A stretch of DNA of 4,110 nucleotides from NCBI RefSeq assembly GCF_013315695.1, contig NZ_CP054359.1; one strand, given 5' to 3'. Below are positions 168 through 4,026 of the stretch, piece by piece. Both the position numbers and the translations under genes were made by a program. The notes under the pieces are model-generated. The model ran no database searches. It worked only from the letters and a program-made list of their open reading frames with translations, and was not told where the DNA came from. Position 1 is the stretch's first letter. Every line of letters starts with the position of its first letter. The DNA comes from Escherichia coli (GTDB taxonomy: Bacteria; Pseudomonadota; Gammaproteobacteria; Enterobacterales; Enterobacteriaceae).

Positions 168-184
168 CTCGCCGTTAAGTTTTT

Positions 185-226
185 AGATCTTGTTTTTAAG
201 ATCTTGTTTTTAATACTTGTTTTCGG
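185..226 (+). repeat. 14-bp tandem direct repeats AGATCTTGTTTTTA (two exact copies plus a degenerate third), AT-rich, each exact copy carrying a GATC site; candidate DNA-unwinding element of oriV
   Basis: Exact copies at 185-198 and 199-212, degenerate copy ATACTTGTTTTCGG at 213-226. GATC at 186-189 and 200-203. Lies in a T-rich stretch just upstream of the iterons. Confidence 0.55.
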
Positions 227-267
227 ACCGAAATTTCTTATGGAATTCAAGGGATTAGATTGCTATA

Positions 268-350
268 GGTGAACATTTCGGGGGTAAAGGTGAACATTTC
301 GGGGGTGGTTAGGTGAACATTTCGGGGGTAAAGGTGAACATTTCGGGGGT
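268..350 (+). repeat. Iteron array of oriV: four direct repeats of GGTGAACATTTCGGGGGT
   Basis: 18-bp core exactly repeated at 268-285, 289-306, 312-329 and 333-350, with alternating spacers AAA and GGTTA (periodicity 21/23/21 bp, about two helical turns). Sits directly upstream of a Rep_3-type initiator gene. Confidence 0.9.
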
Positions 351-352
351 GG

Positions 353-361
353 TTATCCACA
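353..361 (+). promoter_or_regulatory. Consensus DnaA box TTATCCACA adjacent to the last iteron
   Basis: Exact 9-mer match to the high-affinity DnaA box consensus, 2 bp after iteron 4. Confidence 0.65.
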
Positions 362-447: not shown

Positions 448-1149
448 ATGGTTGATTTGATAGCTTACAAATCCAATGCCTTAGTCGAAGCCAGCTACAA
501 GCTCACGTTACAGGAGCAGCGTTTCCTGTTGCTGTGCATTAGTCGATTACAGTCAGGTGTTGATGCTCCTCCACCTGAATTACAAAAGACCATGACTATT
601 ACGGCTGTGGAGTTTTTTAATTCATTTCCTGACATGGGAAGAAACCATGCCGAAGAAAAGTTACAGGAAGCGATCGATCGTCTGTGGGACAGGTCGATCA
701 TTCTTAAGGATGGTGAAAAACGCGAGGAGTTCCGTTGGATCCAGTATCGGGCGCAGTACCTGAAAGGCGAAGCAAAAGTTCAAATAACTTTCGCAGATGC
801 TGTAATGCCGTACTTAACGCAATTAAAAGGGCAATTCACAAAAGTTGTAATTAAAAACATATCTAATTTATCAAAGAGTTATAGCATCAGAATATACGAA
901 ATCCTCCAACAGTTCCGTAACACAGGGGAGCGGATGATTTCTCTAGATGATTTCCGCAGCATGCTACAACTGGAAGATAAATATAAAGATTTCAAGACGT
1001 TAAATAGAGCCCTCATAAAACCGGCAGTGGCGGAACTGAATCAAAAAAGCGATCTGGCCGTAACGGTTGAGACAATCAAGAAGGGGCGCACTGTCGTAGC
1101 CCTGCATTTTCGCTTCAAGGAAGACAAACAGATCAAGATGACGATCTAA
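448..1149 (+). CDS. repA: Iteron-binding plasmid replication initiator, Rep_3 (RepA/RepE/pi-like) family, 233 aa
   Basis: Complete ORF, ATG to TAA (1147-1149). The translation has the hallmarks I recall for Rep_3 initiators such as pPS10 RepA: an N-terminal ...SNALVEASYKLTLQEQRFLLLC... segment and a C-terminal ...YSIRIYEILQQF...ISLDDFRSMLQLEDKY...ELNQKSDL... segment. Located immediately downstream of the cognate iterons. Lower GC than the mob module. Confidence 0.85.
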   Translation: MVDLIAYKSNALVEASYKLTLQEQRFLLLCISRLQSGVDAPPPELQKTMTITAVEFFNSFPDMGRNHAEEKLQEAIDRLWDRSIILKDGEKREEFRWIQYRAQYLKGEAKVQITFADAVMPYLTQLKGQFTKVVIKNISNLSKSYSIRIYEILQQFRNTGERMISLDDFRSMLQLEDKYKDFKTLNRALIKPAVAELNQKSDLAVTVETIKKGRTVVALHFRFKEDKQIKMTI

Positions 1150-1194: not shown

Positions 1195-1256
1195 GTGTAA
1201 GGTATGCGATGGTACTACGAATCACAAAAACATCGTCAGAATCGCTCTCACGAGCT

Positions 1257-1282
1257 AAAAAAATCCCCCATATGCGGGGGGA
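1257..1282 (-). terminator. Rho-independent terminator for mobA (minus-strand orientation)
   Basis: G/C stem CCCCC (1265-1269) / GGGGG (1276-1280), extendable to 6 bp, with an ATATGC loop. On the minus strand the hairpin is followed by a 7-T run (complement of A 1257-1263). Lies about 117 nt downstream of the mobA stop. Confidence 0.55.
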
Positions 1283-1324
1283 AGAAACTATGCGGAGATT
1301 ATCTAGTTTGTTGTGTGTGCTTAT

Positions 1325-1353
1325 TGACGTTCATCCCTGTCATGTGAACGTCA
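1325..1353. repeat. Inverted repeat TGACGTTCA / TGAACGTCA (9-bp arms, 11-bp spacer) in the mobA 3' untranslated region
   Basis: Left arm 1325-1333, right arm 1345-1353, exact reverse complements. Flanked by reiterated CATG/ACATGA motifs (1341-1369). Function unknown. Confidence 0.5.
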
Positions 1354-1398
1354 CATGAACATAACATGATGTTAAACAAAACAAAATATTGTGCACAT

Positions 1399-3558
1399 TC
1401 ACTGTGACCAACCGCGATCGTGCCTCCTCTCGGTGGCGTGTGTTCGTGCATCTTCCTCGCGCCGCCATTCGTCCCAGGTACGATTAAAACCCAGCGAGCG
1501 GAACAGATGATCCGGCTGTTTTTCTGGTGTATTGACGGCAGCAAAAAGCGGTGCCTCACGGGTTTTCAGATGAAACTCCATAAGTTCCGGTGCAGGTGAT
1601 ATGTGGCTGTCTGCATCGTGATTGACGGCAACACCATACCCTGCATACCGTAACCCCTTGTCCGTCAGCGCACTGATGACCAGATGCCTGTTATCGGCTG
1701 AGGGAACGGCAAACGCGGGATACAGCGTGCCATTAAGCCGGACAACGCCGCCCAGAGAGTCATCCACGCCCATGACCAGCAAAAGCTGAAGCTGGCGGGT
1801 TTCCCGGTCGACAGAACTCATTACCGGCATCAGCGTCGGTGGCAGACGTCCCTGCGTAAAATCCACCTTCCTTGCTGCCAGTGATGGCATGGCTGGCTGG
1901 CGGTCTTCTCCAAGACAGAAAAACTCCGGCCATGTCTTCGGCTGGCGGAGATTGCGGGTATGTTGTGGCCATGTCTGGCAAACCTGCGTCAGCAGTTGCT
2001 CAAAGGTCGCAGAGGAATAAACACGTTGCAGTGGTGGATGTTGACCGATTTCGCTTCGGTCACAGATATAACCACTCCTGTCACGCATTAAATCAACACG
2101 CTCAAAGATTCTGGTGCGGTATTTCTCCAGCTCGTTCCCCCAGAGCGTATATTCTCCGTTCCGGTTGTGAAGCAGAAGGTAACTGGTCATTTCCCCGTTA
2201 CCAGGCATGGGGGCCTCGCCATACCCCGTAACGACTGCTCTCAGTACCCCTGAATCCATAACGGCATTGTCATTTTTCCTGAGCTGCTCCGCTCGTCGCT
2301 CCGCGCGACTACGTTCTGTATCCTCCAGCTCCTTCCGGCGCAATTCCTCTTCACGTTTAAGCAACTGGGCTCTGAGAGCTGCAAGGCCGGATGCCCCCCA
2401 CTGCTGCCACTGTGTTTCAAATTCCGTCTGACTCGCGGGAATGTCCTGTTTCTCCACCTTCCGGTAATGCTGTCGCAATTTTTCCATTTGCTGGCTCAGA
2501 GACTGAATTTTTCCCTGCTCACTACGGTATTCCGGTGCAGCCCATTGCATCAGGGGAATACGGGAAAAACCGGACGAAAACGGCGATGATTTTTTCAGGC
2601 TGGCAGCATGGCTCATCGCTTCCTTTCGTTCGGTGTTCAGCTCTTCCCAGCGTCTGCGCGTCGCCTGCATATCTGTCATCATCGACATGGCATTACTGGT
2701 GAGTTTCCATGCCGCGTTACTGTCCTTCGGCAACGCTTCGATGATGTCACGTAGTGTGTACGAAGTTGCGTTGTCAGGAAGCTCAATATTCAGAAGGTCA
2801 GCCACACGGCGGGCAGGCTCTGTCAGCCCGCTGTTCCTGAGTTCGGTACGGAAAATCTGTATTTCCAGGCTAAGCCTGTTAATCAGACGATTCTGTTCGC
2901 CGCGTTCTGTTTCGATACCGCGTGTTTCCATCGCACAGGCAGACTTTCCGAGGTGAATACCAGGCGTTTTCTCAAGCCCCTGTCGCTCGTATGAACGATG
3001 GTCTATCTCTTCCTGATAACCGGCGTTCGCCAGTGCCCTGTTTGCATGGTCAGCCCATGATGCCCGCCACGTCTCGGCATGTGTCCGGTCGTTCCAGTCC
3101 CTGACCTTTCCACCGAACCCCGCAGGTCCGACAGCCCTCGTGGTCAGCATGATGTGCGCATGGGGATTTGTTTTATCCATGTGATGGAACGCCACATCAG
3201 CAATCATGCCCTGACTGACAAAGTTTTCTCTGACAAAGGCGAGAACGGTTTCCCGTGCGGCATCCTGCGGCAGTTCACGGGGGATGGCGAGTTCAATTTC
3301 CCGCGCAAGTTGTGAGTTCTTCCGACGTTCGGCCTTCTCAACGGCATTCCAGAGTTCGGTACGGTTCGTACACCAGGCAGGGGCGGTGGCGGGGGACAGA
3401 ATCACAGCCTCAGCCACACCGCTTTTGCGGGTGTAGTCGTGAGTCAGTCCGGTACGCTCATCAAGCATTAGTGAACCGGAACGATAGGCAGCAGAAGCAA
3501 CGGCGCTGTAGCCGTTGCTTCTGGAGATGATTTTCATGCTGAGATGATAAATCGCCAT
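1399..3558 (-). CDS. mobA: MOBQ-type mobilization relaxase MobA with C-terminal RepB'-like primase domain (relaxase-primase fusion), 719 aa from the conserved MAIYHL start
   Basis: The N-terminus MAIYHLSMKIISRSNGYSAVASAAY closely matches RSF1010/R1162 MobA (MAIYHLTAKTGSRSGGQSARAKADY), including the catalytic Tyr25 (codon 3484-3486). Histidine-triad metal-binding motif HHMDKTNPHAHIML and conserved WADHANRAL...IDHRS...GLE..PGIHLG are present. A central E/R/Q-rich predicted coiled-coil follows. C-terminal motifs ERVDLMRD, LLLVMGVDDSL and HLFRSLGFNRT resemble RSF1010 RepB' primase segments (ERFDIGVRD, LVLVDDLSEF, HYGRLAGFTNRK) as I recall them. Start chosen at ATG 3558 rather than the ORF-track start at 3663. 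Approximate domains: relaxase 2886..3558, linker 2181..2885, primase-like 1399..2180. Confidence 0.85.
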   Translation of the reverse strand: MAIYHLSMKIISRSNGYSAVASAAYRSGSLMLDERTGLTHDYTRKSGVAEAVILSPATAPAWCTNRTELWNAVEKAERRKNSQLAREIELAIPRELPQDAARETVLAFVRENFVSQGMIADVAFHHMDKTNPHAHIMLTTRAVGPAGFGGKVRDWNDRTHAETWRASWADHANRALANAGYQEEIDHRSYERQGLEKTPGIHLGKSACAMETRGIETERGEQNRLINRLSLEIQIFRTELRNSGLTEPARRVADLLNIELPDNATSYTLRDIIEALPKDSNAAWKLTSNAMSMMTDMQATRRRWEELNTERKEAMSHAASLKKSSPFSSGFSRIPLMQWAAPEYRSEQGKIQSLSQQMEKLRQHYRKVEKQDIPASQTEFETQWQQWGASGLAALRAQLLKREEELRRKELEDTERSRAERRAEQLRKNDNAVMDSGVLRAVVTGYGEAPMPGNGEMTSYLLLHNRNGEYTLWGNELEKYRTRIFERVDLMRDRSGYICDRSEIGQHPPLQRVYSSATFEQLLTQVCQTWPQHTRNLRQPKTWPEFFCLGEDRQPAMPSLAARKVDFTQGRLPPTLMPVMSSVDRETRQLQLLLVMGVDDSLGGVVRLNGTLYPAFAVPSADNRHLVISALTDKGLRYAGYGVAVNHDADSHISPAPELMEFHLKTREAPLFAAVNTPEKQPDHLFRSLGFNRTWDEWRREEDARTHATERRHDRGWSQ

Positions 3559-3602
3559 TTCTGCCGTAATGCCTTTTTGCAGTTTTCTTTCAGCCCCGCA
3601 GG

Positions 3603-3650
3603 GCGCACACAATCGAACCGAAGGTGAGATTGTATAAGTGCGCACTTCGT
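3603..3650 (+). other. Candidate origin of transfer (oriT), IncQ/MOBQ-like: imperfect inverted repeat with GAA loop followed by nic-core TAAGTGCGC
   Basis: Imperfect inverted repeat ACAATC-GA-ACC / GGT-GA-GATTGT (3609-3633) with a central GAA loop, followed 2 nt later by the 12-bp perfect palindrome AAGTGCGCACTT (3636-3647). TAAGTGCGC (3635-3643) matches the RSF1010 nic-region core GTAAGTGCG^CCCT. Sits between divergent mobA and mobC, on the strand antisense to mobA as in RSF1010. Predicted nic after G3642 on the + strand. Confidence 0.6.
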
Positions 3651-3699
3651 GATTTCTGCGCATTATGCCAGCTCAGTTTTTAAACTACCAGTGACGAGC

Positions 3700-3735: not shown

Positions 3736-4026
3736 ATGAGCAGAACACTCGAACAGAAAATTGCCGAAGCTGAAGCCAGATTGCAGCGTCTGAAGGCAAA
3801 GAGCCGGAGCCTGGACACAGCGCAGAAGGTCGTTGTAGGTGCTGCATTGCTGGCAAAGGTCAGAAAGCCGGAGGAGGTGCAATTGCGCGCCTGGTTACTC
3901 CAGTTCCTGAAGGCAGAGGTGACACGGCAGGCTGATGTGAGCAGGATACAGCCGTTGATTGACGAACTGAACGCGTTGCCAAAACCCGTCCCCAAAGGCG
4001 TGTCAAAAAACGGCCAGCAGGCGTGA
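3736..4026 (+). CDS. mobC: Mobilization accessory protein MobC-like (relaxosome component), 96 aa
   Basis: Complete ORF, ATG to TGA (4024-4026), with a good RBS. Small protein with an N-terminal charged helix (AEAEARLQRLKAKSR) and the motif KVVVGAALLAKV, resembling RSF1010 MobC (about 94 aa, ...RKVLVGAMILAKV...). Divergent from mobA across the oriT, which is the IncQ arrangement. Confidence 0.7.
   Translation: MSRTLEQKIAEAEARLQRLKAKSRSLDTAQKVVVGAALLAKVRKPEEVQLRAWLLQFLKAEVTRQADVSRIQPLIDELNALPKPVPKGVSKNGQQA

Follow-up and report, generated by a model that had tools for sequence, protein, structure and literature searches.

In this MOBQ41 plasmid, whose transfer module consists of oriT, mobA and mobC, mobB is very probably absent from mobA rather than overlooked there, and 2181..2885 very probably holds no other overlapping gene. 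The window (the whole stretch of DNA analysed, 4110 bp) is a complete circular plasmid, with a 100% match to p.E166-P5, NZ_CP032071.1. The region under study, 2181..2885, corresponds to MobA aa ~225-460 and is single-frame mobA coding sequence, comprising the end of the relaxase domain, a predicted helical linker and the initial strands of a Sog-like domain (Table 1). The absence of mobB is the already known, published and experimentally characterised normal state of the MOBQ4 family, in which the transfer module is made up of oriT, mobA and a non-essential mobC only (Garcillan-Barcia et al. 2019, PMC6856555). Sequence analysis of this kind would be blind to very short peptides (<40 aa) and to starts beyond ATG, GTG and TTG, and the claim of absence is limited to that extent.

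Table 1. Features of the plasmid, with open stretches in the alternative frames of mobA
Feature	Position	Strand	Remarks
rep, Rep_3 initiator	448..1149	+	Pfam Rep3_N 1.8e-37, Rep3_C 4e-21
mobA, MOBQ41 relaxase, 719 aa	1399..3558	-	RefSeq MobQ family relaxase in the identical NZ_CP032071.1; start MAIYHL
Sog-like C-terminal domain, MobA aa 439-719	1399..2244	-	beta-rich; BLASTP match to IncI1 SogL
sog-closer patch, MobA aa 589-698, ~330 nt	1465..1794	-	nearer to IncI1 sog than to sister-clade mobA
Predicted helical, coiled-coil-like linker, MobA aa 225-438	2245..2886	-	most of 2181..2885
Open stretch, 33 codons	2518..2417	-	no start codon
Open stretch, 56 codons	2692..2522	-	sole start gives 7 aa
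Open stretch, 36 codons	2789..2679	-	TTG start, 35 aa
Relaxase domain, MobA aa 1-224	2887..3558	-	33% identity to RSF1010 MobA over 253 aa
oriT, 177-bp mobA-mobC intergenic region	3559..3735		matches the experimental 178-bp oriT of PMC6856555
Putative nick region	3609..3645	+	inverted repeat I2 (3609-3619 / 3623-3633), then TAAGTGCGC (3635-3643)
mobC, relaxase accessory protein, 96 aa	3736..4026	+	divergent from mobA; named MobC by RefSeq in relatives

A MOBQ41 mobilisation module

The plasmid is a MOBQ41 member of the pIGWZ12/pE2022_4 type, ~4.1 kb, of E. coli. Its mobA is ~97% identical at the nucleotide level to the genes for relaxases WP_001029343.1 and WP_001029354.1, both MOBQ41 entries in Table S2 of PMC6856555, a close sequence kinship with the listed members. 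The replicon is of the Rep_3 type, with four ~21-bp direct repeats at 266-355 upstream of rep, and mobC is divergent from mobA with the oriT between them (published length ~178 bp). The catalytic residues listed in PMC6856555, Y25, E87, E89, H125, H133 and H135, are all invariant in the alignment (A1). MobA matches the Pfam MobA_MobL (1.9e-70) and NCBIfam MobQ (1.2e-78) profiles, and its relaxase domain matches the sequences of PDB entries 4ht4 (NES, 1.2e-27) and 2ns6 (MobA, 8e-10). The mechanical ORF of mobA extends to 3663, and the extension crosses oriT.

Aligned with Q41 and Q42 plasmids, the oriT region averages 89% identity per column. In the RSF1010 oriT sequence used as query, the inverted repeat likewise precedes a TAAGTGCGC core, and from this arrangement we infer that the nick position probably lies within 3609..3645. 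MobC is 78-93% identical to the copies in relatives and has 36% identity over 66 aa with RSF1010 MobC (pairwise E 3e-7). The plasmid used for the published mobilisation tests is ~97% identical to the window in the mobilisation region. The best helper for the pE2022_4-derived pRC1, whose mobA+ mobC+ oriT backbone was mobilised, is the IncI1 plasmid R64drd11 (MPF_I); without mobC, mobilisation falls by only ~1.5 log, and the pRC1 relaxase acts preferentially in cis (PMC6856555).

Among MOBQ41 relatives, pIGWZ12, pE2022_4, pSE11-6 and pEC147-4 (PMC6856555) have the same plan: a Rep_3 rep preceded by iterons, mobA, an oriT of ~178 bp and mobC in divergent orientation. Their mobA genes are ~97% identical to this one in nucleotides, lack mobB and have the C-terminal SogL homology noted in PMC6856555. 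The relatives compared are slightly smaller (4057-4091 bp vs 4110 bp), and outside mobA the backbone has diverged further, with ~89-91% overall identity; the MobC found here is the 96-aa variant and not the 84-aa one. The MOBQ42 colicin plasmids (ColE9-J, pDPT1/pDPT3, Col156 replicons) share the mobA-oriT-mobC module with a near-identical oriT, a relaxase domain 84-85% identical in amino acids, the lack of mobB and a Sog-like C-terminus. They differ in having a ColE2-type replicon and a colicin operon, and identity falls to ~40% in the linker and C-terminal domain.

RSF1010/R1162 (IncQ1, MOBQ1) resembles the plasmid in its N-terminal MOBQ relaxase domain, its divergent mobC with oriT between the genes, the inverted repeat followed by TAAGTGCGC and a weakly similar MobC. 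Here, however, there is neither a frame +1 mobB nor an in-frame RepB' primase domain, and the C-terminus is Sog-like; past aa ~233 there is no similarity to RSF1010 MobA and no primase family match that would indicate the MobA-RepB' fusion of IncQ1. The preferred helper of MOBQ41 plasmids is MPF_I (IncI1), not IncP1 as for RSF1010/R1162, and the relaxase is cis-acting and not efficient in trans (PMC6856555). The earlier note took its expectation from RSF1010, which has mobB in an alternative frame of mobA. That placement was seen again in frame +1, but as a yardstick for this plasmid it is only loosely apt, because just the ~230-aa relaxase domain is shared (33% identity) and the family, MOBQ4, is a different one.

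Search for mobB in the alternative frames of mobA

Both alternative minus-strand frames were scanned across mobA with ATG, GTG and TTG starts allowed, and open stretches of 30 codons or more were tabulated for 2181..2885. The longest stop-to-stop stretch in this region has 84 codons (2495..2241, MobA aa 355-438). It first offers a start at TTG 2420 (59 aa), and the longest ORF that begins with ATG in it has just 10 aa, which bears out the earlier note's statement that no ATG-started mobB-like gene lies in 2181..2885. That note had left two possibilities, that mobB is absent or that it has a GTG or TTG start and was missed, and had proposed a re-scan for a product of 100-140 aa with a transmembrane segment. 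The re-scan found no such product: no alternative-frame stretch in mobA reaches 100 codons with any start, which effectively excludes a gene missed through its start codon. By comparison, RSF1010 mobB occupies a frame +1 stretch of 138 codons with ATG as first codon, while the longest +1 stretch of the window is the one of 84 codons, with TTG and no Shine-Dalgarno (SD) sequence.

The alternative-frame translations do not resemble MobB in other respects. None matched any NCBIfam profile, or Pfam PF17511 (Mobilization_B) at E<=1, in a search in which RSF1010 MobB matched PF17511 at 1.1e-61, and no transmembrane-like segment was found, the Kyte-Doolittle 19-residue maximum being <=1.26 in every alternative-frame ORF and 2.38 for RSF1010 MobB in the same scan. 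In an anti-SD duplex calculation, no SD was present at the starts of the 59-, 70- and 73-aa candidates; the RSF1010 mobB start gives -10.3 kcal/mol. A tblastn search with RSF1010 MobB found nothing in the alternative frames of the window. Its best match (E 0.027, 2511..2284) falls within the coiled-coil linker, read in the frame of mobA itself, and was judged compositional because it is gone with composition-adjusted BLASTP (E 5.2).

Over the whole of mobA the longest alternative-frame ORFs are 1760..1981 and 1299..1559 (GTG, 86 aa, running past the mobA stop). The first, in the +2 frame (73 aa from TTG, 70 aa from ATG), was rejected, with no family match and no SD. It is Gly/Ala/Pro-rich with a Kyte-Doolittle 19-residue maximum of 0.17, in agreement with its earlier description as low-complexity and non-hydrophobic. 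In relatives L008 and L012 it is shortened to 59 aa, and at its position and frame no stretch is open in MOBQ42. The second belongs to a +1 stretch at the mobA 3' end, 1299..1565, whose endpoints vary among relatives and which is broken in MOBQ42. When the synonymous codons of mobA were shuffled 1000 times, the longest alternative-frame ORF on the same strand had a mean length of 89.8 aa, and 85% of the shuffles equal or exceed the observed 73 aa; the alternative-frame ORF lengths in mobA are no greater than chance gives. The genuine RSF1010 mobB (137 aa) is also not longer than synonymous shuffles at 66% GC. ORF length is thus a weak discriminator, and reliance was placed on profile match, hydrophobicity, SD, conservation and synonymous-site suppression.

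Synonymous sites and the IncQ1 control

In three IncQ1 plasmids used as control, mobB lies at the identical offset of 748 in frame +1 of mobA, and the fraction of synonymous differences is 0.07 and 0.20 over mobB vs 0.26-0.37 in the flanks. No such suppression in mobA, the signature of dual coding, was found in 2181..2885. Between MOBQ41 and MOBQ42, two clades with few intermediate sequences for this region, 57-58% of the identical-residue codons of 2181..2885 differ synonymously (saturated). The same measure gives 56-58% in the Sog-like region and 33-34% in the relaxase domain. Since the divergence in 2181..2885 equals that of the downstream region, there is no constraint from a second frame. 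With no long ORF, profile match, hydrophobicity, conservation in MOBQ42 or synonymous constraint, the evidence favours the first of the two earlier possibilities, that mobB is absent; a conserved alternative-frame ORF with a ribosome-binding site and membrane character, which would have spoken for the second, was not found inside mobA.

Other candidates for an overlapping or neighbouring gene

The +1 frame at 2241..2420 could hold a novel small gene unrelated to MobB, for example one starting at TTG 2384, that serves as a MOBQ41-only accessory factor, but this is improbable. In each of the seven MOBQ41 mobA genes compared the +1 stretch is still 80-84 codons long, and TTG 2384 is the only internal start with an SD-like sequence, a run of G at 9-14 nt upstream whose potential pairing with the anti-SD amounts to -9.3 kcal/mol. 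The stretch sits, however, in a purine-rich segment coding for the Glu/Arg/Ala coiled coil, where +1 stops are rare by composition, and 84% of the shuffles give a longer one. Its first start shifts among MOBQ41 plasmids, giving 55, 59 or 67 aa, and the substitutions within Q41 at 2241..2495 are mostly non-synonymous in the +1 frame (0-4 synonymous vs 6-15 non-synonymous). The 59-aa product from the first TTG has no family match and a Kyte-Doolittle 19-residue maximum of -0.07, and its start has an anti-SD duplex of only -3.5 kcal/mol, far from that of RSF1010 mobB; for this ORF (2241..2420) the changes within Q41 number 0-2 synonymous vs 6-9 non-synonymous in the +1 frame. The 47-aa product from TTG 2384 is basic and lacks hydrophobic character, and MOBQ42 does not conserve it. 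The whole 84-codon stretch is specific to Q41; MOBQ42 plasmids lack it and are mobilised just as well (PMC6856555).

A MobB analogue might also lie elsewhere, in a 47-aa ORF between rep and mobA (1204..1347, + strand). This reading has a similarly low probability. The ORF has an ATG start and a hydrophobic tail (Kyte-Doolittle 19-residue maximum 2.08), and PMC6856555 counts as a fourth backbone gene a 'hypothetical protein' that was looked for and not located. Against it, the ORF is not conserved: the DNA of relatives L008-L011 is only 72-77% identical and tblastn gives no match, and in relative L002 the similarity switches between two overlapping frames, indicating indels. None of the relatives examined has it annotated in RefSeq, and there is no counterpart in the MOBQ42 plasmids.

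It is less probable again that any of the plus-strand ORFs opposite mobA is real. These ORFs, at 1872..2231 (119 aa), 2391..2702 (103 aa) and 2633..2956 (107 aa), are the longest overlapping 2181..2885, but their lengths are within the shuffle expectation (fraction of shuffles at least as long, with any start, 0.09 to 0.98). They have no Pfam match and are unannotated in all relatives, and no promoter-like site was found in 2100..2950. A true mobB homologue with a GTG or TTG start is the least credible reading: RSF1010 does have mobB in frame +1 just after the relaxase domain and the window does have its 84-codon +1 stretch, yet that stretch is too short, without a MobB family match or transmembrane-like segment, negative by tblastn and not kept in MOBQ42, and its synonymous sites lack the suppression so clear in the IncQ1 control.

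The Sog-like C-terminal domain

Where IncQ1 MobA carries a primase, MobA here carries a domain related to the C-terminus of the IncI1 primase SogL/SogS (R64, ColIb-P9). MobA aa 439-698 align with SogL aa 947-1231 at 44% identity (BLASTP E 2e-67). MobA differs from SogL in lacking the Toprim/primase part, the domain being joined to a relaxase and not to a primase. The resemblance is strongest in the patch at aa 589-698, which is 73.6% identical in amino acids and 76% in nucleotides to SogL aa 1122-1231 and only 50-52% identical in amino acids to MOBQ42 MobA; within it, 1510-1749 has a ~80% nucleotide match to sog of many IncI1-type plasmids. AlphaFold pLDDT is >90 over roughly aa 514-704, and no significant PDB fold match was found for the domain. 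When MobA aa 225-719 were used in a homologue search, all the proteins returned were near-identical members of the family. A separate Sog-like polypeptide made from an in-frame internal start, comparable to RepB' or SogS, was considered and set aside: the nearest Met, at ~aa 434, is not conserved in MOBQ42, and on inspection of the sequence, made without an anti-SD calculation, has only AGGA ~17 nt upstream.

In R1162/RSF1010, MobB supports the type IV transport signals of the relaxase. This job would be unnecessary in MOBQ4, or may be built into MobA through the C-terminal domain shared with SogL. SogL is described as exported to recipients by the I1 transfer system (a statement cited in PMC8406263). 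SogL is exported by that system on its own. It is possible, although put forward here with some doubt, that the Sog-derived domain is a type IV recruitment and export signal that makes a MobB-type adaptor needless and tunes the plasmid to IncI1 (MPF_I) helpers, and that the patch at 1465..1794 reflects recombination with the helper that keeps the signal matched. PMC6856555 noted only a 'low homology to SogL' and did not tie it to helper preference.

Implications

No mobB-type gene has been missed in the RefSeq annotation of this very common cryptic backbone, which lists three genes (rep, mobA/mobQ, mobC), and not every MobA/MobL relaxase should be expected to follow the gene plan of RSF1010. 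The test for overlapping genes, combining a frame scan, a synonymous-shuffle null, synonymous divergence between clades and an IncQ1 control that behaved as expected, can be reused. If the role proposed for the Sog-like domain is true, helper specificity in this family, which now carries mcr-4 as well, could be explained by a relaxase bearing the export-competent end of the primase of its helper.

Alternative-frame scan of mobA

The region 2181..2885 of the window encodes MobA residues ~225-460, and the earlier note saw in it no ATG-initiated gene resembling mobB, which in RSF1010 (IncQ1) overlaps mobA in another frame. Both alternative minus-strand frames were scanned stop-to-stop over all of mobA with ATG, GTG and TTG as starts, and neither a stretch of at least 100 codons with any start codon nor a product with a Kyte-Doolittle hydrophobicity (19-residue window) above 1.26 was found. 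The largest open stretch in the region has 84 codons (2495..2241), with a first start at TTG 2420 that gives 59 aa and a longest ATG ORF of 10 aa. The longest alternative-frame ORFs elsewhere in mobA are 1760..1981, already noted by the earlier reader (73 aa with the TTG start, 70 aa with the ATG), and a GTG-initiated ORF of 86 aa at 1299..1559, which continues beyond the mobA stop. As a positive control, the same script run on RSF1010 found mobB as a 138-codon stretch in frame +1 relative to mobA, spanning MobA residues 249-386; ATG is its first codon past the stop, and its hydrophobicity peaks at 2.38. Since the script recovers the genuine gene and the window scan is negative, the earlier observation is correct, and it also holds for GTG and TTG starts.

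ORF length was compared with 1000 shuffles of mobA's synonymous codons in which protein and codon usage stay unchanged. In these, the longest same-strand alternative-frame ORF averages 89.8 aa, and 85% of the shuffles reach at least the observed 73 aa; the ORFs antisense to mobA, with 119, 107 and 103 aa, do not exceed the shuffle expectation either. The length of the genuine RSF1010 mobB is itself unremarkable in shuffles at 66% GC, so ORF length is not a sharp test, and further criteria were therefore applied.

Homology and translation signals

RSF1010 MobB matches the Pfam family Mobilization_B (PF17511) at 1.1e-61, and the alternative-frame and antisense translations of the window have no Pfam or NCBIfam match at E<=1. 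The single weak tblastn match to MobB lies in mobA's own frame and is compositional, falling in a Glu/Arg/Ala-rich segment with an E of 5.2 after composition correction. The Shine-Dalgarno sequence of RSF1010 mobB (GGGAGG) has an anti-SD duplex energy of -10.3 kcal/mol, compared with only -3.2 to -3.5 kcal/mol for the 59-, 70- and 73-aa candidates. The sole exception is TTG 2384, where an upstream G-run gives -9.3 kcal/mol; the 47 aa encoded from this start form a basic, non-hydrophobic product without a family match. No promoter-like site was found in 2100..2950.

Two candidates elsewhere on the plasmid were also rejected. A 47-aa ATG ORF between rep and the mobA 3' end (1204..1347, plus strand) has a Cys-rich hydrophobic tail (hydrophobicity maximum 2.08) and is not conserved, since the similarity changes frame in one relative (L002) and tblastn is negative in other relatives. 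An 85-aa ORF spanning the window ends has internal stops in relatives and is likewise not conserved.

Comparative tests

The sister clade MOBQ42 (L004 and L005, Col156/colicin plasmids) has a MobQ of 739 aa that is 55% identical to the window MobA overall and just 39-40% identical in the finding region. Its central region contains no alternative-frame open stretch of at least 50 codons, and its C-terminal open stretches lie in different frames and positions from those of the window. Among codons for the same residue in both clades, the share that differs synonymously is 57-58% across the finding region, 56-58% for the C-terminal region and 33-34% within the relaxase domain. Synonymous change is thus unconstrained in the finding region. 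In IncQ1 plasmids taken as a positive control, mobB lies at the identical offset 748 in frame +1 (RSF1010, pVPS72-VEB and pCHE-A), and the synonymous-difference fraction in mobA is 0.07 and 0.20 across the overlap versus 0.26-0.37 in the flanks. The test is thus able to detect a real overlapping gene, and it detects none in the window.

The 84-codon +1 stretch is kept among seven mobA genes of the window's own clade (89-100% identity), with a first start that shifts to give 55, 59 or 67 aa. Its +1-frame substitutions are 0-4 synonymous versus 6-15 non-synonymous, as expected when a coiled-coil segment rich in purines is read in the wrong frame. Another +1 stretch, at the mobA 3' end, varies in its endpoint among relatives and does not stay open in the sister clade.

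The scan, family profiles, Shine-Dalgarno energies and synonymous sites, together with a published family whose only transfer genes are mobA and mobC, support the absence of mobB from this plasmid. Within the reach of sequence analysis, the other reading offered in the earlier note, a mobB missed for its GTG or TTG start, is ruled out.

Plasmid family and gene content

The window is a complete circular plasmid of 4110 bases; E. coli p.E166-P5 (NZ_CP032071.1) and an equally long Salmonella plasmid match it at 100% identity. Nearly all of its ~600 relatives are 4.06-4.09-kb mobilisable MOBQ plasmids from E. coli, Salmonella and Shigella. It carries three genes; the published backbone count includes a fourth, an unplaced "hypothetical protein" (Garcillan-Barcia et al. 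2019, PMC6856555). The direct repeats upstream of rep fit the literature description of a pIGWZ12-type origin.

Features of the plasmid and of MobA
Feature	Position	Strand	Remarks
A+T-rich direct repeat	179..223		upstream of rep; 13-14-bp unit, ~3.4 copies
Four ~21-22-bp iterons (AGGTGAACATTTCGGGGGTAA)	266..355		upstream of rep; direct repeats
rep	448..1149	+	Rep_3 initiator
mobA	1399..3558	-	MobA/MobL-family relaxase gene
MOBQ relaxase domain	MobA residues 1-~230		33% identity to RSF1010 MobA; PDB sequence matches NES 4ht4, MobA 2ns6
MobA C-terminal part	from aa ~438		beta-rich in model; pLDDT >90 at aa ~514-704
Inverted repeat, then TAAGTGCGC	3609..3645	+	3609-3619 / 3623-3633; TAAGTGCGC at 3635-3643
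mobC	3736..4026	+	small gene divergent from mobA

The group has been defined as MOBQ4, comprising MOBQ41 (Rep_3, cryptic, ~4 kb, pIGWZ12/pE2022_4) and MOBQ42 (ColE2-type, colicin plasmids) (PMC6856555). Two relaxase accessions of the fetched relatives appear in Table S2 of that paper, and pE2022_4, the plasmid of its experiments, is 97.2% identical to the window over the finding region. The published transfer genes are mobA and mobC, with no others, so the absence of mobB is the family's published, functional state. The relaxase prefers oriT in cis, mobC deletion lowers mobilisation by just 1.5 log, and the best helper is R64drd11 (IncI1, MPF_I) (PMC6856555). The 2019 description reports no resistance genes in the family (PMC6856555). 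One Salmonella relative of 9.5 kb (L012; NZ_MG800340.1, pMCR-4.2_AB243) shares the rep-mobA-mobC backbone and carries mcr-4.2 (colistin resistance) at 4582..6207.

The mobA-mobC intergenic region (177 bp; oriT is published as a 178-bp intergenic region, PMC6856555) is nearly invariant between MOBQ41 and MOBQ42, with far more divergent flanking genes. Its arrangement mirrors the RSF1010 oriT, where an inverted repeat precedes TAAGTGCGCCCT. RefSeq starts mobA at 3558 (MAIYHL..., 719 aa). Taking the first possible start, at 3663, gives an ORF of 754 aa with 35 extra codons (3559..3663, minus strand) that read through the conserved oriT, TAAGTGCGC core included; this longer ORF is an artefact of choosing the first start. 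Many database MobA entries (748-755 aa) appear to have a similar upstream extension. MobC, which the identical RefSeq record names a "hypothetical protein", is 36% identical to RSF1010 MobC over 66 aa (pairwise E 3e-7), with the common motif KV(V/L)VGA..LAKV; PSI-BLAST had given no homology to other accessory proteins (PMC6856555). MobC occurs in two lengths within the family, 96 and 84 aa, with different C-termini.

MobA architecture and transfer without mobB

MobA has three parts: the relaxase domain, a linker and a C-terminal part for which a PDB search gave no significant fold match. The C-terminal ~280 aa (1399..2244, minus strand) share homology with the final ~285 residues of SogL, the IncI1 primase (44% identity, E 2e-67), described previously as "low homology to SogL primases" (PMC6856555); in RSF1010 the equivalent position is occupied by the RepB' primase. 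Residues 589-698 (a 330-nt patch, 1465..1794, minus strand) are 74% identical to SogL (76% nt to sog) and only 50-52% identical to sister-clade MobA, and ~1360 conjugative plasmids, mostly IncI1-type, match window 1510-1749 at ~80% nt. Because this patch is nearer to SogL than to sister-clade MobA, its sequence suggests that it may have come from recombination of a mobilisable plasmid with the sog gene of its preferred helper.

Linker homologues are confined to this relaxase family; 114 representatives, many of them fragments, match MobA residues 225-719 among 1.84 billion proteins. Between MOBQ41 and MOBQ42, the mobA relaxase domain has 83% nt identity and the linker and C-terminal region ~52-53%. 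In the relatives L008 and L012, the relaxase domain is the part most diverged from the window (87 of 224 codons changed). Given this mosaic divergence, mobA modules seem to have been exchanged through recombination. The linker is the fastest-evolving part within the family (30 non-synonymous versus 18 synonymous changes in L008), and among the variants compared (L008, L009, L010 and L012) a 12-nt, 4-codon in-frame difference inside this coiled-coil linker (2241..2495, minus strand) separates 719-aa from 715-aa MobA.

Published work on close relatives shows that MobA works at oriT in cis with MobC enhancing, and that the complex is exported via the coupling protein and the MPF_I apparatus of the helper. 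In R1162, the two type IV transport signals of the relaxase are cited as requiring MobB (Parker and Meyer 2007, cited in PMC8406263). Hundreds of SogL copies are exported by the I1 system, and this export does not depend on DNA (PMC8406263). With the C-terminus of SogL, a relaxase might need no adaptor to dock on the I1 system. The lack of mobB is an ordinary, already known feature of the family.
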